The notes under the pieces are model-generated. The model made no database searches. It was not told the origin of the DNA and saw only the letters and a list, made by a program, of their open reading frames with translations. Both the position numbers and the translations under genes were made by a program. A stretch of DNA of 64,000 bases, taken from the NCBI GenBank assembly GCA_963785725.1, contig CAWAWS010000015.1:1-64000 (forward strand), in the 5' to 3' direction. This document shows, piece after piece, positions 17,305-51,753 of the stretch (its first letter is position 1; every line of letters starts with the position of its first letter). The stretch comes from an uncultured delta proteobacterium (GTDB taxonomy: Bacteria; Myxococcota_A; Polyangia; Palsa-1104).

Positions 17305-19648
17305 ATGCGTACCTGGATTCTCGCCGGACCGATCGTGGCCTTGGGCGTCGCCGCCGGCTCGTGCACGCCGCCGTTGCCCAAAGGCAAGCCGACGCCGACG
17401 ACCTACTTCACCTCGAAGACGACCGATAACCACTTCTATGTCGCCAATCACTTCTTGGCGTCGATGGAGATGCAGATCTCGGGCGAGCCCTTCGCGCAGC
17501 TGCTCGGCCGCAACCTCGCCGGCTACAACCGCTACAGCACGATCCCCGATTTGTACTTCGATCCGAACACCGGCATCGTCAGCGTCGATCCGCTCAGCTA
17601 TTCGATGGCCGTCGAGTCCTACGAATATTCCAAGCAGCCGATGAACAACACGTCGTTCGAGTCGGGCGCCGGGCTGTCGCTCGAATACGGCCCGGTCTTG
17701 AATCCGACGGGCGTGACCGGCGACGCCGCCTTCGCGCTCCTGACTCGATCGCCTGCAGACGCTGGCGCTCGAGAGCGGCGCGGGCACCGGCCTCGGCAAC
17801 TGGGTGCTGACGCCGGCGCCGACCGACAACCCGCTCAACACCTACGGGTGGCCGGGCTTTTGGCCCATCTTCGCCGAGTTCCAGTCGTTCGACACCAACA
17901 TCAACCCGACGAGCGGCTCGATGCGCGCCTGCTCCATCGTCGGCGGCTACGCGGCGGCGACGCTCGGCTCGCAGGTCGTCGGCGACTACGAGTGTGGCTA
18001 CAACTCGCTCAACTTACCGCTGCGCGACATCCAGGTCGTCAAGGTGCTCGATCCGGCGGCGCTCGGCTTTGCCATGTGGAAGCAGGGCTTGTGGGTCATC
18101 AATTACTGGCAGTCGCTGCATGACGTCGCCGGCAACCCGATCTCGCAGATCGCGGCCGCCGACCTGCCGATGGTCGGGCAGCCGAACAACACCGTCGTCG
18201 GCCAATATCCCGATCCGACCGATCCGACGGGCACGCGGCTCATCGACGGCGCGCCCGGCGTCTACTTCGGCGACATTCCGATCGAGGGCTGGCAGGGCCT
18301 CAACATGCTCGAGGAGATGCACAACAAGGCGACGCTGCTCTTGACGAAGCTGACGACGAGCGACGGCGCGACCTTGTGCGGCTTTGCATCGACGGCGGCG
18401 GCGATGGCGTACGACTACACGTCGCCGTTGCGCTGGGTGCCGTCGGAGGTGGCGGTCACGGAGACGGGCGGCACGGCGCCGGTGCCGGGCTACTCGTGGC
18501 GCGACTTTCCGCAGCCGGCGACGTTCACGGTGCAGACGCCGCAGTCGAGCCTGCACGGTCTGACGGCGCTGCTGGGCGGCTTCGCCGAGATGTTCGCGCT
18601 CACCGACTTCAACAACGCCGACGTCGGCGGACAGCCCTCGAGCTTGGCGACCTTCGACGGCGATCCGTTCCCGGCCGACAATCAGCTGCCCGACGGCGAA
18701 GACACGCCGCACGATCGCGCGCTGGCGAACATCAAGGTGGCGGTCGTCAACATGGATCGGCTGCACTTCGAGCCGACGCACGCCGTGCTCGTCGACACGG
18801 CGACGCCGCAAGCGCGCGGCACCACCGTGACGACGCTGACGACGGCCTATTCGATCGTCGCCTTGCGCGCGGCCTTGCGCTCGATCTCGTCGACGCTGGT
18901 GCTGTATTCGAACGACACGCCCGATGCCGTCGGCATCCCGACCGCGCTCGACGGCGCGCCGCTCGCTGGCGCGCCGGCGCCGCTGCCCGCGCGCATGCTG
19001 CAGCTCATCCGCGCGCAGGCCGACTTCTTGGCCGGCACGCTCGTCGGCGCTTCCGGCGCCGTCGCCAATTCCTACGACCTCGGCAGCGACAAGCCCGACG
19101 GCGCGCCGACGGCGATCGAGTCGGAGACGAGCGCCATTCGCGGCCTCCTCGAAGCGTACTTGGCGACGAGCGATACGAAGTACATCATGGCCGCCGAGAA
19201 AGTGTACGCCGACCTGGACGCGCGCTTCTGGATGAGCGACGTGCGCGCCTATCGCACGACCGCCGGCGTCGACGACACGCTCATCGAGACGCCGATCGCC
19301 TTCGGCACGCTGCAGGGCGCGCTGCGGCAATACTGGAAGCTCGTCGCCAATCAGCCCGGCAACGAGCAGCTCAACGCGGAGATTCTGCAGCGCGTGCAGC
19401 GCGTCAACAAGCTCGTCGCCAACGGCTGGGACGATGCCAACGGCGACAACAAAGTGCAGTATCCGCAAGAGTGCACCGGCGCCGGCCTGCAAATGGGCGA
19501 GCGCACGCTGACGGGTGAGCTCTCGCATCCCGAAGACGCCGGTGATCGCGATCACGACTGTGTGATGGAGATTTCAGTCGTCAAGCTGCCGGCCGCGCTC
19601 GCCGGCACCGTCGAGTTCGATCGAGTTGACCCGACGACGGCGCAATGA
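17305..19648 (+). CDS. Large Trp-rich hypothetical lipoprotein with (alpha/alpha)6-like C-terminus (frameshift ~17745)
   Basis: AAGGAG RBS, AAGSC lipobox. IRGLLEAYLATSDTKY..AAEKVY...RFW helical-hairpin pattern. Confidence 0.7.
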
Positions 19649-19670
19649 CATGACAAGGAAGTCGAAAACC

Positions 19671-21662
19671 ATGAAGTGCCTTAGCCTTACCTCTTTGTCC
19701 TGGTTGGCGCTGTCGTTGGTGTCGGTCGGTTGTGGCGGCGGCCATGGCAGCGGCGCGAACGGCGGTAAAGCGGTCGGCGTCGCGCCCATGTCGTCGTCGC
19801 TGGCGTTGACGTCGGACGACGCGCAGCTGTGGGTCGTCAACGCCGACTCCGACTCGGTGTCGCTGCTCGACGCCAAGGCGCGCACGCTCACCGCCGAGAT
19901 CGCGCTCGGCACGGCGCCGCCGGCGGTCGATCCGGTGACGATGCGCTTCGATCCCAAGGTTTCGCCGCGCGCGCTGGCGATCCTGCCGGGCAACGCCAAA
20001 GTTTACGTCGCCGGGCAGCGCGCCGACACCGTCTACGTCGTCGACGCGGCCAGCCGCAGCGTCAGCGCCAAGATCGCGGTCGGCGCCGAGCCGACGGCGG
20101 TCGTCGCGTCGGCCGACGGCACAGCGGTCTACGTCGTCAGCCACGAAGCCGCCGTGGTGACGAAGATCGATCCGACGACGAATACGGTCGTGGCGACGTT
20201 GCCGGTGAACGAGCATCCGTGGGGCGCGTCGCTGTCGGCGGACGGCAAGTCGCTCTTGGTGACGCATTTGCTGCTGCACGCGGGCATGACGGTCATCGAC
20301 ACGGCGACGTTCACCGTGCGCAACACCGTCGAGCTCGTGAATCAGCCGGCGGACACGGCGTCGAAGCTGGTGCCGAACGGCGTCCCGCGCGGCGTCTACA
20401 TGGCGGTGCCGCGGCCGGGCGTCGGTGGCGGCGACATTTGGCTGCCGCACATGCTGCTGGCGACGGGCTTGGCGCAGCCCGATCTCGACTTTCAGTCGAC
20501 GGCGTTTCCGACCATCTCGACGTTCGCCGCCGACGCGACGACGGTGGCCAAGCGGCTGGTCTTCAAGCCGCTGACGGTGCCGGGCGCGACGGGCGCCTTC
20601 AACGACTCCATCTCGGGTCCGCACGCGCTGGCGTTCACGCCCGACGGCACGCTGGCGCTGATGGCCAACTCGGCGTCCGAAGACGTCATGGTCTTCGACG
20701 GCAAGACGGGCAACGAGCGGCAGCTGGTGCGGCCGGTGCCGGGCGCGCTCTTGGAGGGCATCGTCGTCGACTCGACCGGCACGCACGCCTTCATCGACGG
20801 GCGCAACACGCACAACATCATCGCGCTCTCGATCATCAACGGCACGGCGCTCGACGTCGCGGTCGACGGCGATCCGATCGAGCGGCTGCAGAGCGGCGAC
20901 CCGATGCCGACGACGATGCGGCTCGGCCAGCGCCTGTTTTACACGGCCAACTCCTCGGCCTTCCCGATCACGCAGAACTTCTGGATCGCTTGCGCCACCT
21001 GCCATCTCGAGGGCGGCACCGACGCGGTGACCTGGAAGTTCGCGCAAGGTCCGCGCGACACGCCGTCGAACGCCGGCGGGCCGATCAACACCGGCTTCCT
21101 CATGCGCCAGGCGCTGCGCAACAACATGGAAGACTACGACGTCACGATTCAGACGGAGCAGGGCGGCCTCTTCCATCGCGACGTGCCGTCACAGCTGCCG
21201 TACTTGGACGCGCTCGGCCAATACACCAACTACGCCATCCCGTACCCGAACAATCCCAACGTCAGCGCCGACGGCACGCTCACGGCGCAGCAGACGCGCG
21301 GGCAGACGACGTTCACGAGCTTGTGCGCGAGCTGCCACACCGGCGCCTATTACACCGACAGCGGCGCCGGCAACCCGACGCTGGTCATGGACGGATCGCT
21401 GCCGATCCTGTTGCACAACGTCGGCACCTGCGTGCAAGGCACGTCGTTCGACGATCAGCCGCACAAAGACGACGTGGTCGGCACCTTGCGCACCGCCTGC
21501 GACTTCGACACGCCGACGCTGCGCGGCATCTTCGCCACCGCGCCCTATTTCCACGACGGCAGCGCCGCCACGCTCGACGACGTCGTCGCCCGGCTGCCGA
21601 TCTCGAGCTCACTTTTGGCGTCGGACCAAGCCGATCTCGTCGCCTTCCTAAAGACGCTATGA
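19671..21662 (+). CDS. YVTN/YncE beta-propeller fused to di-heme cytochrome c peroxidase (CcP/MauG-like) lipoprotein
   Basis: Lipobox SVGC, propeller repeats, CATCH and CASCH, RDTPS, and TPTLRGIFATAPYFHDGSAATL. Confidence 0.85.
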   Translation: MKCLSLTSLSWLALSLVSVGCGGGHGSGANGGKAVGVAPMSSSLALTSDDAQLWVVNADSDSVSLLDAKARTLTAEIALGTAPPAVDPVTMRFDPKVSPRALAILPGNAKVYVAGQRADTVYVVDAASRSVSAKIAVGAEPTAVVASADGTAVYVVSHEAAVVTKIDPTTNTVVATLPVNEHPWGASLSADGKSLLVTHLLLHAGMTVIDTATFTVRNTVELVNQPADTASKLVPNGVPRGVYMAVPRPGVGGGDIWLPHMLLATGLAQPDLDFQSTAFPTISTFAADATTVAKRLVFKPLTVPGATGAFNDSISGPHALAFTPDGTLALMANSASEDVMVFDGKTGNERQLVRPVPGALLEGIVVDSTGTHAFIDGRNTHNIIALSIINGTALDVAVDGDPIERLQSGDPMPTTMRLGQRLFYTANSSAFPITQNFWIACATCHLEGGTDAVTWKFAQGPRDTPSNAGGPINTGFLMRQALRNNMEDYDVTIQTEQGGLFHRDVPSQLPYLDALGQYTNYAIPYPNNPNVSADGTLTAQQTRGQTTFTSLCASCHTGAYYTDSGAGNPTLVMDGSLPILLHNVGTCVQGTSFDDQPHKDDVVGTLRTACDFDTPTLRGIFATAPYFHDGSAATLDDVVARLPISSSLLASDQADLVAFLKTL

Positions 21663-21738: not shown

Positions 21739-21765
21739 TAAAGTATGGACGGCAACGTCCGATGC
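21739..21765 (+). promoter_or_regulatory. Sigma28 (FliA)-type promoter TAAA-N15-TCCGATGC
   Basis: Fits the TAAA-N15-GCCGATAA consensus. Sister sites at 29126 and 51763. Confidence 0.6.
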
Positions 21766-21773
21766 GATCTGCG

Positions 21774-23105
21774 ATGATCTTCCACCGGCAACACACTCGT
21801 CACAACTTGGTCCTCGAAGCAGAAGTGAGCTGCGAGGGACGGCTCATTCAGGGCCGCACCATGAACATCTCCAAAGGCGGCTGCAGCGTCTTGTCACGGA
21901 CGCCGCTGACGGTCGGCTGTGAGCACTCGGTGCGCCTCAAGATCGACGGGCTCGGCGGCAAGCTGCCGGCCGCGGTCGACCTGAGCGCGATGGTCGTGTG
22001 GTGTACGCGCGCCGACCGCGACTTCCAGATCGGCCTCAAGTTCTTCAGCCAGTCGAACGAGACGGTGAAGCTGCTGGAGACGATCTTGGGGGCGGCCGCG
22101 GCGCAGGCGCCGGCCAACGATCGCGACGAGCCGGTCGTTACTCCCGTCGCCGCCGCGCCCAACCCCGATCCGTTCGCCTACGCGCTCGAGGATCTGGCGA
22201 CGGTCGACGGCTTCACGGTCTCGCACAGCCAAGAAGACCTCGATCAGGTCGATCGGCTGGCCGAGATGGTGGTCAACCACTTCTGGCAGAACCGGCCCGA
22301 TCCGCTGGCGTTCCCGCACTTGGCGACGCAGATGATCGACGCGCTCGAAGATCCCGAGGTCGACCTGCAGAAGATCGTCGGGCTCGTGCAGCAGGAGCCG
22401 GCGATCGCGGCGTCGCTCATGAAAGCGGCCAATTCGCCGCTGTTCCGGCGCGGTATGCCGGTGTTGAACTTGAACAGCGCGGTGACCAAGCTCGGCCTGC
22501 GCACCGTCGGCCACTTGGCGGCGGGCGTGGCGTCGACGGCGCTGTTCGACATGGCGGCGCGCACCGAGCTCGCGCTGCACGCCGGCCGCTGGCACTCGAT
22601 CTTCCATCACGCGCTGACGACGGCGTTCTCGTCGGCGTGGCTGGCCGAGCGCTGCCGCGTCTGGCTGCCCGATCGCGCGTTCTCGGCGGGCCTGTTGCAC
22701 GACGTCGGTAAGTCGCTGGCGCTGCGTTCGTTGAGCGCGCTGCAGATCGACGGCAAGGTCGACACGCAGCTGCCCGATCAGGTGGTGGAGATGGTGCTCG
22801 AGAAGACGCACCTCGAGCTCGGCGTCGAGATGCACGTCGCCTGGAGCTTGCCGGAGTATTTGCTGACGGCGTGCCGGCAGCATCACGACGAGACGCTGGC
22901 CGACTCGGCCGAGACGCGCGTCCTGCACGTCGTGCGCGTGGCGTCGGGGCTCAACGAGCTGCGCACGCAGCCGTCGCTGGCGGCGCAGCGGGCGCCGGCG
23001 TTGTGCCAGAGCTTGCGTACGCTCGGCCTCGAGCGCACGGGGTTGACCGTCATTCGCGAGCAGCTCGAGCACTTCGCGCAAAAGGTCGAAGGCATCATCG
23101 CCTGA
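21774..23105 (+). CDS. PilZ-HDOD domain protein
   Basis: PilZ RQHTR and NISKGG. HDOD QEPAIAASLMKAANS and AFSAGLLHDVGK. Start placed after the sigma28 -10 element (alternative 21762). Confidence 0.85.
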   Translation: MIFHRQHTRHNLVLEAEVSCEGRLIQGRTMNISKGGCSVLSRTPLTVGCEHSVRLKIDGLGGKLPAAVDLSAMVVWCTRADRDFQIGLKFFSQSNETVKLLETILGAAAAQAPANDRDEPVVTPVAAAPNPDPFAYALEDLATVDGFTVSHSQEDLDQVDRLAEMVVNHFWQNRPDPLAFPHLATQMIDALEDPEVDLQKIVGLVQQEPAIAASLMKAANSPLFRRGMPVLNLNSAVTKLGLRTVGHLAAGVASTALFDMAARTELALHAGRWHSIFHHALTTAFSSAWLAERCRVWLPDRAFSAGLLHDVGKSLALRSLSALQIDGKVDTQLPDQVVEMVLEKTHLELGVEMHVAWSLPEYLLTACRQHHDETLADSAETRVLHVVRVASGLNELRTQPSLAAQRAPALCQSLRTLGLERTGLTVIREQLEHFAQKVEGIIA

Positions 23106-23373: not shown

Positions 23374-25992
23374 TCAGCTGGCCTTCGATTCCAGCTCGAT
23401 GTCGATGTCGACTTCCAGCTCCGCCGACGCACGCGAGGTGAACGGCAGCTCGATCACGAGGCGCGACCCGCGCCCGGCCGTCGACTCGAGGTGCGCCGTC
23501 CCGCCCGCCTCGACGGCGATGGCGCGCACGACGTCCATGCCGACGCCGCGACCGGACAACATCGTCACCGACTCCGCCGTCGAGAAGCCGGGCTCGAACA
23601 GGAGCTCGAGCAGCTCGTGATCGCTGACGACGGCATCGGCGCGCAGGCGGCCCGACTGCACCGCTTTGCCGCGCACGCGCGCCAGGTCGACGCCGCGGCC
23701 ATCGTCACGCAGCTCGATGCGCATGCGCTTGCCGTGCAGGCGCGCCTTGAGCGCGATCGTGCCTGCCGGCGGCTTGCCGGCGGCGGCGCGCGCCTCCGGC
23801 GTCTCGATGCCGTGATCGACGGCGTTGCGCGCGGCGTGCAGCAACATCTCGCCCAGCCGACGCAGACCCGGCTCGTCCGCTTCCACTTCGTCGCCGTCGA
23901 CCTCGAGCACGACCTCTTTGCCGAGCTCGCGCGCCGCTTCGGCGATCGTGCGCGCCAGGCGATCGGCCAGCGACGCGATCGGGCGCCGACCGAGGCGGTC
24001 GATGCTGCGGCGCAGGGCGTGCCACGACGTCGCCAGCGTCTGCCCGTCGCTGCCGAGCAGCGCCTCCTCGAACGTGCGGGCCGCGGCCGAGACCGCGCGG
24101 GCGCGCTCGGCGTCCTCGAGCGGCTTCGGCGGCAGCGTCGCTTCCACGGTCAAGCCGACGGCGTCGGTGCACAAGCGCAAGACGCGCGCTTCGGCCACCG
24201 GCGTTCCCTCGGCCAGCGCGGCGCCGACGCTGAGCAGGCCGGCTTCGTAGGTCATGGCCGCGATCGTCGCCAGCGCCGCCGTGCGCTCCTCGGCCGTGCC
24301 GCTGGTGCGCGCCGCGGCGCCGTGCAGCGCGCGCAAATGCTCGGCCGAGCGCGCGCCCGTCGCCCGCAGCTCGACCTGAAACGTCTGATACAGGCGCAGA
24401 TGCGAGTCGAGCTCGGCGATCCACTGCTCGACGCGCGCCGCCAAGCTGCGCTGCGGCCGCTCGCTCTTGCGCGCCTCTTGCAGCATGCGATCGACGTCTT
24501 GCACCTGCTCCGCCAGCGCCGTCAGCTGGAAACGCCGCGCACAGGCGCGATAGAGCGCCACCTGATCGCTCAGCGTCTGCACCGCTTGCAGCCCCTCTTT
24601 GCCACGCGGATGCGCCTGCCAATCGGCCAGCGCGCGCTCCATCTGCGACAAGAGGCGGCGCGCCTCCTCGTGAAAGAGGCCGAGCGCGTCGACGCGCGTG
24701 CGCGGCCACAAGTGTGGCTGCAGGGCGCGCCCCATCGCCTGCAGCTGCTGTAGCTCGTCGAGCGCCAGCGCGATCGGCGCGCCCGCTTGGTGGTCGCGCT
24801 CGGCGCGGCGCGCGATCGAGCGCACGCTGTCGACGCCGAGCGACGCCGCGCACGCCGTCAGCGCCGCCAACGCCGACGCGCGCTCGCTCGTGTCGGTCGC
24901 CTGCTGCACCTCGGCCAAGCAGCGCTCGGCTTCGGCGAGATAATGACGCGGCAGCGGACACTCGCGCAGCTCGCGCACCAAGGGCTTGAGCTGTCGCGCC
25001 AGCTGGCCGAGGCGCGTCCGCGCCTTGTCGTCATGGGGATCGCGCGCGGCCACGAGCGCGCGGCGCAGCGCGTCGAGCTCGATGCGCTCGACGCGACCGG
25101 CGAGCTCGTCGAGCGCCTCGCGGCTCATGCGCTCGGCCACGTCGTCGAGCGCGTCGATGAGCCGATCGACCTCCTCGCGATAACGCACGGCCGTCGCCTG
25201 CTTGTTGCTCGTGCCGGCCGCCGCCGTGACGCCGGCGCGCACGCGCGACAAGTGCGCGTCAATCGCCGCCAGCCGCTCCGGATCGACCGGCTCGGCCGAG
25301 GCGCGCACCGTCGACAAGTAATCCTCGGCCGCGTGCGCCGCTTCCTGCACGGCGGCGATGCCGAACGCGCGCGCCGTGCCCTTGAGCGTATGCAGCGAGC
25401 GAAACAGGTGATGCACCGCGTGGCGCGCCGCCGGATCGGCCACCAGCCGCTCGAACGCGCTCTGGCAATCGGCGACCAAGCCCGTGGCCTCGCACGCGAA
25501 CAGCTCGAGCTGCTCGGGCGTCGGCCCGGTCGCGACCGCCTGCGCCGTCGCGCCTTCGCCGGCCACTTCGGGCCGCACGTGCAGCATGATGCGCTCGACG
25601 ATGCCCGCGTCGTCGACGAGCGGCGAGCAGTCGATGGCGTAGACGCTGACGGCGCCGTCGTCGCTGCGGTAGGACGCGCGGCGCGGCGCCTGGTCGGCAT
25701 AAATGTCCCATGCGCCCGTGTCCTGCCCGATGACGCTGGCGATCCACAGCTGCACGAGACCGGCGGCGCCGTCGTCGGGGATGCCGAGCACCTCGTGCAC
25801 CGGCTTGCCGACGGCGGACGCCGACGTGACGCCGATGAGCTCGGTGCGCGCGAACGCGGCCTCGACGAGCCCTTCGGCGGTGACGACGAGGAGCGCGCCC
25901 GGCATGCCGGCCAAGACGCGCGCGGCCAAGTCGGCGCCGACGTCGTTGGCGGCCTGCGCATCGTTCGGCAGCGGCTGGTTCGGCGAATCCAT
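23374..25992 (-). CDS. cheA: CheA-like histidine kinase: PAS, Hpt, helical repeats, HATPase, no CheW/P5 domain
   Basis: Hpt LFRSLHTLKG. HATPase RNAVDHGIE, DDGRG, LFEPGFST and SGRGVGMDVV. Ends ~19 aa after IELP. Start uncertain (25992/26010/26046). Confidence 0.85.
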   Translation of the reverse strand: MDSPNQPLPNDAQAANDVGADLAARVLAGMPGALLVVTAEGLVEAAFARTELIGVTSASAVGKPVHEVLGIPDDGAAGLVQLWIASVIGQDTGAWDIYADQAPRRASYRSDDGAVSVYAIDCSPLVDDAGIVERIMLHVRPEVAGEGATAQAVATGPTPEQLELFACEATGLVADCQSAFERLVADPAARHAVHHLFRSLHTLKGTARAFGIAAVQEAAHAAEDYLSTVRASAEPVDPERLAAIDAHLSRVRAGVTAAAGTSNKQATAVRYREEVDRLIDALDDVAERMSREALDELAGRVERIELDALRRALVAARDPHDDKARTRLGQLARQLKPLVRELRECPLPRHYLAEAERCLAEVQQATDTSERASALAALTACAASLGVDSVRSIARRAERDHQAGAPIALALDELQQLQAMGRALQPHLWPRTRVDALGLFHEEARRLLSQMERALADWQAHPRGKEGLQAVQTLSDQVALYRACARRFQLTALAEQVQDVDRMLQEARKSERPQRSLAARVEQWIAELDSHLRLYQTFQVELRATGARSAEHLRALHGAAARTSGTAEERTAALATIAAMTYEAGLLSVGAALAEGTPVAEARVLRLCTDAVGLTVEATLPPKPLEDAERARAVSAAARTFEEALLGSDGQTLATSWHALRRSIDRLGRRPIASLADRLARTIAEAARELGKEVVLEVDGDEVEADEPGLRRLGEMLLHAARNAVDHGIETPEARAAAGKPPAGTIALKARLHGKRMRIELRDDGRGVDLARVRGKAVQSGRLRADAVVSDHELLELLFEPGFSTAESVTMLSGRGVGMDVVRAIAVEAGGTAHLESTAGRGSRLVIELPFTSRASAELEVDIDIELESKAS

Positions 25993-26064
25993 CGTATTGC
26001 CCTCGGACATGCGTCGGCGTAGCGCCATACCAAACAGACTCGACACTAAATCCCCCCCATCCGT

Positions 26065-26556
26065 TTACTGGTGCGCCGGTTCGTGAATGCGCAGACCGAG
26101 CAGCATCTTGATCGTTCCTGCCGCCGTATCGAGCGTGATGACGAGCGTGCGCCGCGTCAGCTGCAGGCCGTCCACGCCGACGTAGGTGGGCGGCGCGATC
26201 TCGACGTCGTAGCCGGCGTCGACGAGCTTGCCGGTGGCGTTGCCGGTGATGATGTTGGCGAGCTCGGACACGGCCTCGTGACAGACGACGAGATCGACGT
26301 CGTCCGACGCCAACATCTTGCCGGCGATGATGCGCGCCAAGCCCTCGGACACGACGCAGGTCAGCGGCCCGACGACGTTGCCGCGCAGCTCGATGGTCAC
26401 CCCCAGCCACGGCGGCGGATCGATCTGCGTCGTCACCGCCATCTCGCGCAGCGACGGCTCTTCGCCGACGTACGACTTGATCACATCGATCACCGGCTCG
26501 ATGACGGCGTTGACGATGTCGGCGCTGATGGGCGACTTCTGTGGCATTCCGCTCAT
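26065..26556 (-). CDS. cheX: CheX family CheY-P phosphatase
   Basis: AVSELANIITGNA (ExxN) and IAPPT. ATGA overlap with the ATPase stop codon. Confidence 0.85.
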   Translation of the reverse strand: MSGMPQKSPISADIVNAVIEPVIDVIKSYVGEEPSLREMAVTTQIDPPPWLGVTIELRGNVVGPLTCVVSEGLARIIAGKMLASDDVDLVVCHEAVSELANIITGNATGKLVDAGYDVEIAPPTYVGVDGLQLTRRTLVITLDTAAGTIKMLLGLRIHEPAHQ

Positions 26557-28208
26557 TTGGTCACTCGCAGGACTTCTTGGAAGCTGGTGGCGCCGGCGAA
26601 CAGCCGCTTGAGCGCCTGAAAACGCATGGTGCGAAAGCCTTCGGCGTTGGCGCGCTGGCGAATCTCGGCGTCGGTGGCGCCGCGGGCGATGAGCCCGCGC
26701 GTCACGTCCGACAGCTCGAGCAGCTCGCGAATGGCCAAGCGGCCGGCGTAGCCCGAGCGCTGGCATTCGCTGCAGCCGGCGCCCTTTTTCCACGTCGTGC
26801 CCGGCGGCAGCGCCGGCAAGCCGAGCGCCGAGCGCTCGCTCTCGGTCGGCTCGTACTCGACCGCGCAATGCTGACAAACCTTGCGCAAGAGGCGCTGCGC
26901 GATGACCCCGACCAGCGACGGCGCCACCAGATAAGGCTCGATGCCCATCTCCGTCAGTCGCGTAATCGCGCTCACCGCGTCGTTGGTGTGCAGCGACGAC
27001 ATGACGAGGTGGCCCGTGAGCGCGGCCTCGGCGGCGATGACGCCGGTCTCGTGGTCACGAATTTCGCCGACGAGGATGACGTTCGGATCTTGGCGCAAGA
27101 TCGAGCGCAGCGCGCCCGCGAACGTCAACCCGCGCTTGGCGTTGACCTGCACCTGGTTGATGCCCGGCAGCTGATACTCGACCGGATCTTCGACCGAGAT
27201 GATGTTGATCTCCGGCGAGCGCACGGCGTTGAGCGCGCCGTACAGCGTCGTCGACTTGCCCGAGCCGGTCGGTCCGGTCACGAGCAGCATGCCGTAAGGC
27301 ACGCGAATCATGCGCTCGAAGATCGCCAGCTGATCGGGATCGAACCCGAGCTGCTCGAGCGGCAGCGCCGCTTTGGTGTTGTCGAGGATACGGCAGACGA
27401 CCTTCTCGCCCCAGTAGGTCGGCAAGATCGAGACGCGCAGGTCGATGTCGCCTTCCTGCTTCTTCAGCTTGATGCGCCCATCTTGCGGCGTCTGGCGAAT
27501 GGAAATATCGAGCAGCGACAGAATCTTCACGCGCGAGACCAGCGCCGGATGCATCTCGATCGGCCGCGCGTCGACGTGACGCAAGACGCCGTCGACGCGA
27601 TAACGCACCACCGTCTCGCGCTCGGAGGCCTCGATGTGAATGTCGCTGGCGCGCATGGACACGGCGTCGGTGATGATGCGATCGACGAGCGCGGTCGCCT
27701 CGAGCAGCGCCTCTTGCGAGACGTTCTCGTCGGCCTCCTGCTCGGCGCGGCCGGCGCTGATGCGCGGCTCGTACAAGCGGCGGATGGCGCGCTCGATCTC
27801 GTTCGGCGACGCCACGACCGGCGTAATCGTGCGGCGCAAGGTCTGGCTCAGCCAGTCGAACAGCTCGATGCGCGTCGGGTCGCAACAGGCGACCGTCAGC
27901 TCCTCGGCCGACGCGAACGTCGGCACGAGCTTGTGCTTCTCGGCCAGCGCGCGCGGCACCAAATCGGCCAGCTCGGCCACCAATTCGATGCCGTCGAGCT
28001 CGAGGCGCGGCAGCTTGAAGTGCTCGGCCACCGTCGTCACCACCGATTCGACGGTGGTAAAGCCGTGGGCCGCGAGGCTCGCCTCGCTCATCTTCCCGCT
28101 GCGCAAGAGGTCGAGCGCGACGAGCCCGTTGGGGACGGCCGTGCGGCCCGACCGCCGTGAGGCGTCGTTGGCGGCCGGCCTTTGGGCGAGCGAAGGCGAT
28201 GGCTTCAC
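26553..28208 (-). CDS. pilB: GspE/PilB family secretion/pilus assembly ATPase
   Basis: ASDIHIE, PQDGRI, Walker A GPTGSGKST, EDPVEY, LRQDPNVILVGEIRD, TGHLV, and a tetra-Cys Zn motif. Confidence 0.92.
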   Translation of the reverse strand: MKPSPSLAQRPAANDASRRSGRTAVPNGLVALDLLRSGKMSEASLAAHGFTTVESVVTTVAEHFKLPRLELDGIELVAELADLVPRALAEKHKLVPTFASAEELTVACCDPTRIELFDWLSQTLRRTITPVVASPNEIERAIRRLYEPRISAGRAEQEADENVSQEALLEATALVDRIITDAVSMRASDIHIEASERETVVRYRVDGVLRHVDARPIEMHPALVSRVKILSLLDISIRQTPQDGRIKLKKQEGDIDLRVSILPTYWGEKVVCRILDNTKAALPLEQLGFDPDQLAIFERMIRVPYGMLLVTGPTGSGKSTTLYGALNAVRSPEINIISVEDPVEYQLPGINQVQVNAKRGLTFAGALRSILRQDPNVILVGEIRDHETGVIAAEAALTGHLVMSSLHTNDAVSAITRLTEMGIEPYLVAPSLVGVIAQRLLRKVCQHCAVEYEPTESERSALGLPALPPGTTWKKGAGCSECQRSGYAGRLAIRELLELSDVTRGLIARGATDAEIRQRANAEGFRTMRFQALKRLFAGATSFQEVLRVTK

Positions 28209-28699
28209 GAATTGGCCTCGAAGAGGGAATCGAGGTCATCTTGCGTGACGTGATCTTTGTGCAGCTCGGACTCGGCTTTGGCCGCCACCTGCGGCTTGGG
28301 CGTAATCAAGAGCTGCAACTCGGCTGCGCTCAAGATGCCGTCGACGTCGATCGCAGCGGCCGGTGCGGCAGCGACCGCGGCGACGGGCTTCGTGACGACG
28401 ACCGCGGCCATGGGCGGCGCCGGCAAGGGATCATTGGCGCGCGCGGCCGCGGCGAACGCGGTCGGCGGCGGCGGCAGGGCGCTGACGCGACGCGCGGCCG
28501 AGACCGACGCCGCCGCCGAAGCGCCGGGACCGACGACGGCCGCGGCCTTGACCATCTGATTGCCGCAACCGCCGCAGAAGCGATCGCTGGCGCTGTTGCC
28601 GAATCCGCAGCGCGTGCAGGCGGGGCGGTTGTCGAGCCCGCACTGACCGCAATAGCGGCGTCCCGATTCGTTGACGTGGCTGCAGCCGCTGCAAGTCAT
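28205..28699 (-). CDS. Double zinc ribbon protein with FliM/CheZ-like C-terminal peptides
   Basis: Four CxxC pairs, Ala/Pro linker, ILSAAELQLLI and VTQDDLDSLF. 4-nt overlaps with both neighbours. Confidence 0.8.
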   Translation of the reverse strand: MTCSGCSHVNESGRRYCGQCGLDNRPACTRCGFGNSASDRFCGGCGNQMVKAAAVVGPGASAAASVSAARRVSALPPPPTAFAAAARANDPLPAPPMAAVVVTKPVAAVAAAPAAAIDVDGILSAAELQLLITPKPQVAAKAESELHKDHVTQDDLDSLFEANS

Positions 28700-29094
28700 G
28701 GGCGACCTCCCACGGCGAGCGCAGGCCCGGGCGTGATGCCGGCGATGCGCTGCACGATGGCGCGAACTTTTTCCGCTTGAAAAGGCTTGAGCAAGTAGTG
28801 CTTCACGCCGGCTTTTTGCGCGGCGATGATCTTGTCGCGCGCCGTCAGCGAGCTGCACATGATGACCACTGCTTCCGGATGGAGCTGCAACAGCTCCGTC
28901 GCCGCGGTGAGCCCGTCTTTACCCGGCATGACGATGTCGAGCGTCATCAGCGTCGGGTGAAAGGTTTCGTACAACCGACCCGCGTCGTCTCCGCTGGCAC
29001 CCTCGGCGACGACGGTAAAACCGGCGCTCTCCAAGATGGCCTTGAGACTCTTGCGCATGACGGCGGAATCGTCGATTACGACCGCAGTGTGCAT
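28696..29094 (-). CDS. cheY: CheY-like single-domain response regulator
   Basis: IDDS, LDIVMPGKDG, IMCSS and LKPF. Confidence 0.9.
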   Translation of the reverse strand: MHTAVVIDDSAVMRKSLKAILESAGFTVVAEGASGDDAGRLYETFHPTLMTLDIVMPGKDGLTAATELLQLHPEAVVIMCSSLTARDKIIAAQKAGVKHYLLKPFQAEKVRAIVQRIAGITPGPALAVGGRP

Positions 29095-29125
29095 ACCGAC
29101 CTCTCGCAGTTTCGTAGCAAGAGGT

Positions 29126-29152
29126 TCATCGGCCCTCGATCGAGCCGCTTGA
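29126..29152 (-). promoter_or_regulatory. Sigma28-type promoter TCAA-N15-GCCGATGA
   Basis: Lies directly upstream of the cheY operon. Confidence 0.7.
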
Positions 29153-37971: not shown

Positions 37972-39529
37972 TCAGGGGCAGCCGGTCTGCTGCTTCTTGT
38001 CCCAGCCTGGCGGCACGTTGAACGAGACCGAGCCCTTGCTCCAGCGGTCGAAGTTGGAGTCGGGCGTCGCGAAGACCCCGTCGTGACCCAGCTGGCCGCC
38101 GATCAGATGGTTGATCGGCTGCGCCGTCGAATGGCCCGGCGTCGTGTCGTTGTAGTCGCGGAAGTAGTTCTGCATCGTGTTGGCGACGGTCTGGCGGTCG
38201 CCGCTGCTGTCGCGCCCGGGATCGGTCGCGTTGAGCGTCTTGCCCATGCTGTTGAGCACGTTCTGAACGTCGCCGTCGTGATTGTTCATGCTCGTCTGAA
38301 TCGCGTCCGGCGTCGGATTGGGCGTGTCCTTGATGCCGGGATCGTTCTTCATCGCGTTGCCGAGATCCTGCAGCCGCTTCGAGGTCTCCGAATACGAGTT
38401 GGCGTGCTGCTGATCCTGCAAGTGATACGGGTTTTGCATCTCGATCGGGTGCGGCACCGACGTCGGATCGTTGGGCGGATTGGCGGCCGCGAAGCCCGGC
38501 GTCACGCCGTAAACACCCGAGCCGATGCCGTGGCTGGTGATGTCGATCTTGCCGCCCGGCCGCGAATATTCCGAGCCGCGCCCGTTCAGTCCCGGCGGCG
38601 CGTAGTGCGTGATGGTCGCCTTGCCCGTCGAGATCGGCTTGGTCTCGCCCGCATCGCCAGCCTTGTGTGGCTTCTGATTGGGATAGACGGTCGAAGGATA
38701 GGGACCGCCGTAAGGTGCGTCGCCGAACTCCTTGGTGACGGTGACCGAGATCTTGTTGCCGTCGACGCTGTTGACGGTGCCTTCGTAGACCTCGCCGTCT
38801 TCGTCGGTCCACTCGATTCTGGTCGCCCTTGACGAACGCGTTGTGTACCCACGCGCCGAGCGTGCCGACGAAGTAGGAGTGCGTGCCCTCGACCTCGAAG
38901 TTGTAGACCTCGGCGCGGGCCTCCACCGCTTGCACGGCGCCGACGCGCAGCTCGTCACCGTCGGCGTCGAGCAGCGGCTCGTCGGGCGCGAGCGCGTCGG
39001 CGCGCGTCCAGGCGCGATCGGCGGTCCAATAGAGGTGACCCGGCGTCGAGCGAACGACGTCGGCGCTGCCGTCGCTGCGCACGACGCTGACGGCGACGAG
39101 CGGCATGTCCGGCGTCACGAACAGCGCCGTCACCGGCGCGAGCGCCACGCGGCCCGTCTGCTCGTTACGCGAGAGCACGCGGTCGCCGCGCCGCACCTGC
39201 TCGATGGGCTCGGGACCGGATTCGGTCCACACCAGCGTGCCGGCGACGAAGCAGTGCTGGCCCGGAATCATGCACGAGCCGCCGGGGCAGCTGTCGCCGC
39301 TCGGCGTCCCATCGTTGGACGCCACTTGCGTGTCGGCGCACTCGGCGGGCGGGTCGCTGCCGTCGAGCTTGGCGCTGGCGACGGCCATCTTGCACTTCAC
39401 CTTCGTGCCGAACGCCTTGAAGCCGATGATGCAGGAGATGCCGACGAGCACGAGCGCCGTGATGTACTCGACGGCCGCGCTGCCGGAGCGGTGCGACCTG
39501 CGAACGGACCCGTGCCAGACGACAGTCAT
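37972..39529 (-). CDS. Flp pilin - Hint - putative toxin fusion (one extra A at ~38818)
   Basis: G|SAAVEY plus hydrophobic helix. Hint runs from CFVAGT to VHN. Removing one A joins KGDQ to IEWTDEDG and gives an open frame to the stop at 37972. Confidence 0.8.
38840..39253 (-). other. Pretoxin-type Hint (bacterial intein-like) domain, 138 aa
   Basis: C1 CFVAGTLV, block B STPGH, VYNFEVEGTHSYFVG, terminal HN, +1 residue Ala. Confidence 0.9.
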
Positions 39530-51366: not shown

Positions 51367-51753
51367 TTACGAGGCGCGGACGGCGCCGCCCTTGGTGGCG
51401 ACGATGAATTTGACGACGGCCTTGAGCTTCTCGGCCTCGAACGGCTTCAGCAAGTAGTAGGCGACGCCGGCCCTTTGGCAGGCGAGGATCTTCTCGCGGC
51501 TGGTGATCGAGCTGCACATGATGACGAGCGCTTCGGGATGGCGGCGCAGCAGATCGCTGGCGATGGCGATGCCGTCGCGGCCCGGCAGCACGATGTCGAT
51601 GAGGACGACGGTCGGGCGATGCGTGGCGTAGAGGCCGAACAGCTCCTCGCCGCTGCCGCCTTCGCCGACGGTCTCGTAGCCGATTTCGAGGAGAATCGCC
51701 TGCAGTCGCCGTCGCATGATGGGCGAGTCTTCGATGATGACGGCGGTGGACAT
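51367..51753 (-). CDS. cheY: Second CheY-like response regulator
   Basis: IEDS, IDIVLPGRDG, HPEALVIMCSS and LLKPF. Clear paralog of 28696..29094. Confidence 0.88.
   Translation of the reverse strand: MSTAVIIEDSPIMRRRLQAILLEIGYETVGEGGSGEELFGLYATHRPTVVLIDIVLPGRDGIAIASDLLRRHPEALVIMCSSITSREKILACQRAGVAYYLLKPFEAEKLKAVVKFIVATKGGAVRAS

Follow-up and report, generated by a model that had tools for sequence, protein, structure and literature searches.

Chemotaxis-type proteins are linked to type IV pili in the Dif and Frz systems of Myxococcus and the Chp system of Pseudomonas, in which arrays of methyl-accepting chemotaxis proteins (MCPs) and CheW are combined with a CheA kinase that carries a P5 domain. 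Class III histidine kinases are reportedly also CheA-like, with no CheW domain and, as a criterion of the class, no dimerisation domain, and are said to be accompanied by a single-domain receiver and CheX; their link to the pilus was reportedly drawn from co-occurrence with PilT in genomes. A type IV pilus output has been proposed for these kinases, according to a gloss in a passage of PMC6501615. How CheY-like proteins reach the pilus motor is only partly known. Here we describe a five-gene operon (23374-29094) in a stretch of 64,000 nucleotides from an uncultured delta proteobacterium of the Polyangia (assembly GCA_963785725.1, contig CAWAWS010000015.1, positions 1 to 64,000; hereafter the window), in which the genes of a class III-type kinase, a CheY and a CheX-type phosphatase are joined to those of a candidate zinc-ribbon adaptor and a dedicated PilB-type ATPase. 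This wiring is the new part of the system. The initial annotation of this DNA had taken the layout for one unlike the known Che, Frz, Dif and Chp systems, and this stands for the wiring to the ATPase but not for the receptor-less CheA, which is already known from the genomics of class III kinases.

The five genes, and all the parts of them for which we give coordinates, lie on the minus strand. In the direction of reading they encode a single-domain CheY-type receiver of 132 amino acids (aa) (28696-29094; Pfam Response_reg, E 2e-23), a double-zinc-ribbon protein of 164 aa that we predict to be an adaptor (28205-28699; Pfam DZR, E 3e-7, and alignments), a paralogue of the PilB/GspE-type ATPases of 551 aa (26553-28208; Pfam MshEN and T2SSE, E 3e-127; NCBIfam and tree), a CheX-type phosphatase of 163 aa with an E-x-x-N motif, SELANII (26065-26556; Pfam CheX, E 5e-12), and a class III-type histidine kinase of ~890 aa (23374-26046; Pfam Hpt, E 2e-13, and HATPase_c, E 6e-16). 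As had been noted before, the first three junctions are 4-nt overlaps and the kinase gene follows closely, its start lying 18 nt past the cheX stop if GTG 26046 is used; three close homologues start at the equivalent position. A 4-nt overlap is by itself common in gappy, GC-rich DNA. In other genomes, with start codons chosen with a preference for overlap, it was found at 22 of 24 junctions between cheY and the zinc-ribbon gene and at 22 of 24 between the latter and the ATPase gene, and in one genome (G283) all four junctions are 4-nt overlaps. The conserved overlaps are not due to chance.

The absence of MCP, CheW, CheR, PilC and pilin genes nearby, also claimed initially, was borne out in the window. 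Six-frame searches with the CheW and MCP families gave 19 and 6 matches in the genome and none in the window, the nearest lying ~105 kb from it on this contig. Neither tblastn with the CheW, MCP, CheR and PilC proteins of this genome nor a pattern for the pilin N-terminus gave a match in the window. CheB was not seen among the neighbours scanned with Pfam, no search with the CheB family being made. The hallmarks of a canonical (class II) CheA system, a P5/CheW domain together with CheW and MCP genes, are thus not those of this operon. Like Dif, Frz and Chp it has a CheA-type kinase, a CheY and a CheC/CheX-type phosphatase, but unlike them it has neither the genes of an MCP-CheW array nor a P5 domain. 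Its kinase-CheY-CheX part fits the class III kinases as they are reported: the kinase has an Hpt and a CheA-type ATP-binding domain with no CheW/P5 domain and an N-terminal domain of a possibly sensory type, the single-domain receiver and CheX adjoin it, and the genome has a pilT (contig C7). The operon differs from the reported picture of that class in that it includes the PilB-type ATPase and the candidate adaptor, that its kinase is soluble with a ~520-aa spacer that holds a His-less Hpt copy, and that there is no soluble chemoreceptor gene. We found no published description of the joined operon in a literature largely without subscription papers.

The kinase combines in one chain a PAS-like domain, an Hpt domain, a helical spacer with the His-less Hpt copy and a CheA-type ATP-binding domain. 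An AlphaFold model of the whole protein (7 sequences; mean predicted local distance difference test, pLDDT, 70) shows them in order from the N-terminus, first as an alpha/beta domain, then as the Hpt, and lastly as the ATP-binding domain behind a long spacer of helices. The Hpt, or P1-like, domain (25234-25509) carries the phospho-acceptor His213, invariant in 7 of 7 sequences, and matches the structure of CheA P1 (1tqg, Z 14.9), and the ATP-binding, or P4, domain (23437-23997), with its N, G1, F and G2 boxes, has CheA P4 as its top structural match (1i58, Z 22.5, root-mean-square deviation 2.5 Å, 181 residues). From the histidine of the Hpt to the N box there are ~520 aa, as against ~147 in a short type of kinase found in relatives, and residues ~446-560 of this spacer (24349-24693) align with the true Hpt in hhalign (probability 86.6%, E 4e-6) as a copy without the histidine. 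Two low-confidence model helices (638-680) precede the ATP-binding domain, in a stretch that partly aligns with residues 264-509 of E. coli CheA (6s1k).

No match to Pfam CheW or H-kinase_dim was obtained with the kinase. Past its G2 box there are ~58 aa, compared with 183-535 in all 7 canonical CheAs of the genome, and 38-74 aa follow in all 22 homologues in which the G2 pattern is correctly placed (4 of 26 being unusable). A P5 hidden behind an indel was considered and excluded because the 268 nt between the kinase stop and the next, convergent gene are too short for the 138 positions of a CheW domain; a six-frame search gave no CheW match there. The kinase is thus, as had been proposed, a CheA without P5, and with an Hpt, a CheA-type catalytic domain and no array-docking domain it cannot, as modelled, join receptor arrays in the usual way.

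The same annotation had given the kinase a PAS-like input of its own. A domain of this kind is supported (25570-25953, residues ~26-153 counted from ATG 26028): Pfam PAS_4 matched it below cut-off (E 0.0017, in 2 of 27 rows) and AlphaFold, given the domain alone, returned a PAS-type topology at pLDDT 90. A sensor role of its own is putative, because the domain is common to the long soluble kinases and to the short, probably membrane-anchored ones of the same family. In the soluble kinase of the operon it is the only candidate input.

Next, we looked at relatives. When 301 genomes of the class were searched with CheX, a single strong match came up beside several weak ones, which led us to the related family f17; the zinc-ribbon profile then matched 68 of its 138 genomes, and the best 30 loci were examined. 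Wide flanks were taken for 40 matches, together with 16 regions from the CheX search and 5 later ones, and two unpublished genomes (G325 and G326) were left out of the locus counts. Type A comprised 28 loci in 28 genomes. All five genes were present in 19 of them, 15 in the order of the window and 4 with the kinase first, so that the order is conserved elsewhere, in answer to the gene-neighbourhood search suggested with the initial annotation; of the other nine loci, five are cut by contig ends. Type B comprised nine loci with a zinc-ribbon gene, the ATPase, an atypical receiver and usually an HDOD gene, among which two had a broken ATPase and one a frameshifted zinc-ribbon gene; the queries used found no kinase or CheX there. 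CheW, MCP, CheR, PilC and PilT were absent from the fetched flanks of every type A and type B locus in tblastn with the genome's own proteins. In the 19 complete loci the kinase was of the long soluble type in 10 and of the short type, with a long N-terminal extension, in 9, and by eye these extensions, to which Pfam assigned nothing, hold hydrophobic stretches. The same core with two types of kinase points to a fixed output with a swappable input.

Some features of individual loci deserve mention. In G131 the type B operon is found within a cluster of cell-division genes, flanked by ddl and ftsQ, and a receiver gene that is divergent is present as well; type B loci included L162:8098-11596, L165, L192 and L170, and ftsA is also near in L165 and L192. 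The type B ATPase is truncated at L164 (G218) and frameshifted at L168 (G382), through decay or assembly error. At L108:2728-6085 (G279) the gene of a short class III-type kinase comes right after one for a FIST-domain protein; cheX is divergent there, and there is no zinc-ribbon or ATPase gene.

An ATPase profile run over 401 genomes of the class, with 3 candidates scored per genome, gave a top band of 17 genomes at 887-925 bits, made up of the window's genome and 16 from f17, among which are both unpublished genomes. Below it came 6 type B matches (633-799 bits), and all others scored 601 or less. At this depth the four congeners of the window's genome and the other listed members of its family were not in the top band. 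Congener DNA matches the window on both sides of 21.7-29.2 kb and, inside it, only the generic cores of the ATPase and the kinase; the PilZ-HDOD gene (21762-23105, plus strand; Pfam), which converges on the kinase 268 nt beyond its stop, had no match in congener DNA beyond short scraps, unlike the flanking genes. Since the congeners match the flanks and not the block, the operon block is accessory here, either gained or patchily lost. The PilZ-HDOD gene is possibly part of this block; HDOD genes follow type B operons, and one also lies near a type A locus (L155).

An assembly chimera was considered and is unlikely, because the operon has a GC content of 0.70 against 0.68 for the window, its kinase and zinc-ribbon homologues are 83-91% and 69-86% identical in other assemblies, and the same gene order occurs in other genomes. 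Other searches said less about range. The zinc-ribbon protein as a single query found nothing real in 40 relatives, and a search of 401 genomes of the phylum, with 9 candidates scored per genome, gave matches in 26, mostly long frames typical of other zinc-ribbon proteins; G047 was examined further, and absence elsewhere is not implied. Among the 80 loci listed for the kinase query in genome contigs, most were motif matches to canonical CheAs and none had the ATPase or the zinc-ribbon gene, which is uninformative on range. In a soil RNA run we saw short contigs ~90-95% alike to parts of the operon and its flanks, which we do not take as evidence of transcription.

In the zinc-ribbon protein two Cys4 ribbons are followed by a variable Pro/Ala linker that leads to a conserved peptide at the C-terminus. 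Across the family, conservation is confined to the Cys ribbons and the final 15 residues, with linkers anywhere from ~30 to ~170 residues long. In the operon the peptide reads VTQDDLDSLF (28220-28249; motif scans), which resembles the EIDALL motif of FliM/FliY. The family pattern is [VI][ST]Q[DE][DE][LI]DxLF, with Q, D and F invariant, and it was present in all 33 operon zinc-ribbon proteins with a complete end, in none of the 9 from the non-operon loci that were fetched and in 2 of 3 type B proteins examined later. In the genome it occurs in the last 16 aa of only 5 of 21,498 open reading frames (ORFs), a total that includes many spurious frames. When the 150 best matches of the zinc-ribbon profile in 1.8 billion representatives were taken, 121 of the 142 short ones ended in the motif, a count enriched by construction since the search profile contains the tail. 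Variants such as DLDRLF, ELDALF, QIDALF and EIDKLF were found among the profile matches, and the last three agree with EIDALL at 4-5 of 6 positions. Searching Pfam with a profile of the tail gave chance matches only.

Like the docking peptide of CheZ, that of the zinc-ribbon protein would sit at the C-terminus. Like the EIDALL of FliM/FliY it is a short acidic amphipathic motif on a flexible tether, but unlike that of FliM it is C-terminal, ends in an invariant Phe and belongs to a zinc-ribbon protein rather than to a switch or phosphatase domain. CheY~P (phosphorylated CheY) binds FliM/FliY through EIDALL in the groove between helices 4 and 5, according to PMC9126983. From its motif, its tether and the position of its gene, we infer that the zinc-ribbon tail is a candidate CheY~P-docking peptide. 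The tail had escaped the initial annotation, as had the motif loss in the ATPase that we describe below. We also weighed the idea that the tail completes the truncated helix bundle of MshEN, and did not retain it since the spacing of the invariant Q, D, L and F fits EIDALL better. We also noticed a second family of short zinc-ribbon proteins with another tail (T-x-P-I-x-[IL]-x-[DE]-like), not beside an ATPase gene, at L177, L178, L179, L180, L185, L187, L188, L190 and L191.

In the receiver D8, D9, D53, S81 and K103 are present, and Y100 is the equivalent of E. coli Y106. D8, D9, D53 and K103 are invariant in 29 of 29 type A rows, as is R86 at the start of helix 4, and Y100 is a Tyr in 28 of 29. 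The FliM-binding face of E. coli CheY is lined by K91, Y106 and K119, as stated in bioRxiv 10.1101/781468. The solved structures nearest to the operon CheY are those of archaeal and Thermotoga CheY. The motif pattern of CheX was found in 22 of 22 homologues.

The ATPase has the features of the PilB/GspE/MshE family of extension ATPases: an MshEN region, here shortened, Walker A and B, Asp and His boxes and a Cys4 motif. Among the 25 type A ATPases aligned there is no variation in Walker A and B, in the Asp and His boxes or in the four Cys. It scored below the NCBIfam cut-offs for both PilB (TIGR02538, 542 of 676 bits) and GspE (TIGR02533, 527 of 630 bits). A tree built from 33 ATPase cores gave separate clades for canonical PilB (5 rows), GspE-type (5) and type B (4), each with support of 100/98 or better, and a 99/98 branch set all 18 type A rows apart from the three; the root is unsure, a long-branch warning applies and the tree leaves out 4 rows in which Walker A was not matched. 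By score, by place in the tree and by the lack of an adjacent pilT or pilC it is not an orthologue of canonical PilB, for which there is a pilB-pilT-pilC locus elsewhere in the genome, on contig C7. The genome's GspE-type gene (C13:29548-31383) is split over three frames, like several other genes, probably through assembly errors.

The RLGxxL motif, which we take to be the motif of MshEN for cyclic diguanylate (c-di-GMP), was missing from the first 130 residues of all 25 type A ATPases, one of them frameshifted and uninformative. The canonical PilB of the genome has two copies, and 4 of 8 type B proteins have one degenerate copy; a stricter form of the pattern matched nothing, the control included. 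According to the sections of PMC11656802 seen, c-di-GMP binds MshEN in Vibrio MshE and in Myxococcus PilB, PilZ-FimX control PilB in Xanthomonas and Pseudomonas, and in Xanthomonas PilZ binds residues 12-163 of PilB; these sections name no CheY-binding adaptor of PilB. The loss of the nucleotide site, together with coupling to a small adaptor, fits a putative swap of input from c-di-GMP to CheY~P. As with PilZ-FimX and c-di-GMP, a small adaptor or ligand is predicted to act on the N-terminal domain of a PilB, but here phosphorylation of CheY is the proposed input, PilZ and the candidate adaptor are not related, and a dedicated paralogue encoded at a distance from the pil locus serves as the ATPase.

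We therefore consider the following chain, to which we give as a whole a probability of roughly 0.4. The kinase would phosphorylate CheY outside receptor arrays, and the co-encoded CheY and CheX are very probably its cognate receiver and phosphatase. CheY~P would then bind the zinc-ribbon tail through its alpha4-beta5-alpha5 face, which the motif makes probable. The zinc ribbons may contact the ATPase, most plausibly at its N-terminal domain, which is blind to c-di-GMP and corresponds to the part of PilB that PilZ contacts in Xanthomonas; translational coupling is what suggests this contact, and it tips our judgement slightly in its favour. Lastly, the ATPase is predicted to be an alternative motor for type IV pilus extension, and the chances are about even that it would use the cell's PilC/PilM platform, encoded elsewhere, in competition with the c-di-GMP-sensing canonical PilB. 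In this chain CheY~P, docking on a FliM-like peptide of a portable zinc-ribbon adaptor, would directly switch a c-di-GMP-blind PilB paralogue, as the output that was long predicted for class III kinases but is not known to have been identified. With FliM and CheF as the first two ways in which CheY is coupled to a motor, this would be the third, and in flagellated myxobacteria it may serve to coordinate the pilus with the flagellum. Archaeal CheF, according to PMC9126983, binds CheY near the phosphorylation site and not in the manner of the FliM groove, and docks on ArlCDE rather than on an ATPase. Like CheF, the adaptor is predicted to form the link between CheY~P and a motor from the superfamily of type IV filaments, but the zinc-ribbon protein is unrelated to it in sequence.

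Several observations weigh against this chain. At the position of the operon CheY that we presume, from its numbering, to correspond to E. coli K119, V, I or M was found in 29 of 29 rows. A search of the PDB sequences with the tail profile brought up neither FliM nor CheZ; the set holds no chains of fewer than 20 residues, and the best matches were at chance level. The genome also has an orphan paralogue of the operon CheY, 56% identical and its only other close copy (51367-51753, minus strand); next to it we found neither a kinase gene nor one for CheX or a zinc-ribbon protein. Four complete type A loci lack cheX, the kinase or the ATPase. By the queries used, PilC, PilT and pilin genes were absent from all type A and type B loci, so the pilus role comes from the family of the ATPase and from nothing else at these loci. 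Two further loci, L114 and L115, have kinase, CheY and CheX genes with no zinc-ribbon gene or ATPase; together with the type B loci without a kinase they would agree with two co-transcribed modules, class III kinase-CheY-CheX and zinc ribbon-ATPase, that are independent and make no contact. This we hold to be very unlikely, as the cheY and cheX genes flank those of the zinc-ribbon protein and the ATPase and are translationally coupled to them, the type B receiver adjoins the ATPase in 8 of 8 loci where it is intact, and the tail is invariant only in operon proteins. The almost equal NCBIfam scores, both under cut-off (527 bits for GspE and 542 for PilB), and the presence on C13 of a GspE-type gene with pilin-like neighbours would in turn agree with a CheY-adaptor switch that gates the motor of type II secretion or of another type IV filament instead of the motility pilus. 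The tree puts the paralogue in neither clade, with the long-branch warning given above, and the Cys4 motif and MshEN domain, being common to both, do not tell them apart, so that we regard such an output as very doubtful.

The initial annotation had proposed a soluble kinase-CheY-CheX circuit whose output is the ATPase; an array-free circuit linked to the ATPase agrees with the conserved order and the missing P5, while the ATPase is its putative output and could also be an input, or CheY could act on the flagellum. Myxococcus PilB is a signalling protein that acts before the Dif proteins and does so without a need for pilus assembly (PMC5544727), so that the signal may flow in either direction. 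The operon ATPase might accordingly be a signalling or sensing hub whose nucleotide state controls the hold of the zinc-ribbon tail on CheY~P, upstream of an output such as exopolysaccharide. At none of the loci does the ATPase gene adjoin pilus genes, the PAS-like domain of its family is the one obvious candidate for a sensor in the window's kinase, and type B, where the queries found no kinase or CheX, ends in an HDOD gene. Nonetheless, the short kinases of 9 of the 19 loci seem to bring an input of their own in their hydrophobic N-terminal extensions, and the ATPase keeps all the catalytic and Cys4 motifs of a working motor, which makes the reversed flow doubtful in our eyes. The other possibility is that the main target of CheY is the flagellar switch, with the zinc-ribbon protein as a tethered CheY~P sink or as a second output that coordinates the ATPase with swimming. 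The genome has a full-looking flagellar cluster with motAB (C29:27000-69300); FliG was found in 0 of 4 tested members of its own family, and the congeners lack the operon. Two type A operons (G315 and G316) come after genes for a PAS protein and a sigma-54 activator, which are themselves arranged back to back with flgB, two of type B (G218 and G382) lie between flgE and fliM, and FliG is present in 9 of 9 type B genomes. Both the flagellar genes of this genome and these four operons speak against a reading confined to the pilus. An operon was within 10 kb of flagellar genes in 4 of the 25 FliG-positive genomes of the family, compared with ~0.002 per genome by chance, although these kin are not independent and probably represent two events. 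On the other hand, the operon and the flagellar cluster of the window's genome are on different contigs, its FliM-like protein is missed by Pfam FliM and has a degenerate N-terminal docking motif (VLDPAEVAAIR), and FliG matched 17 of the 28 type A genomes and, in f17 as a whole, 73 of 138, which is no clear enrichment (Fisher p 0.29). The other 11 type A genomes, some of them 92-93% complete, gave no FliG match. Flagella are not required for type A, and the module has a history beside them. We consider a flagellar main target unlikely, and gating of the ATPase through the adaptor is the reading we keep.

The operon names a full candidate chain of kinase, CheY, phosphatase, adaptor and ATPase, and makes the question of the class III output testable. 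The hosts seen are genome assemblies without known genetics; as five small soluble proteins, the system could be reconstituted in vitro or in Myxococcus.

Finally, two other regions of the window drew our attention. At 17804-21662, on the plus strand, a 614-aa protein without a Pfam match is followed by a protein with a beta-propeller and a cytochrome c domain, a gene pair with several paralogous copies in the congeners. At 37972-38958 (minus strand) and upstream of it lie ORFs in which a Flp/TadE-like N-terminus is followed by an intein-like (Hint) stretch and a C-terminal region that varies; to the eye this layout resembles that of a polymorphic toxin, apparently split by a frameshift.

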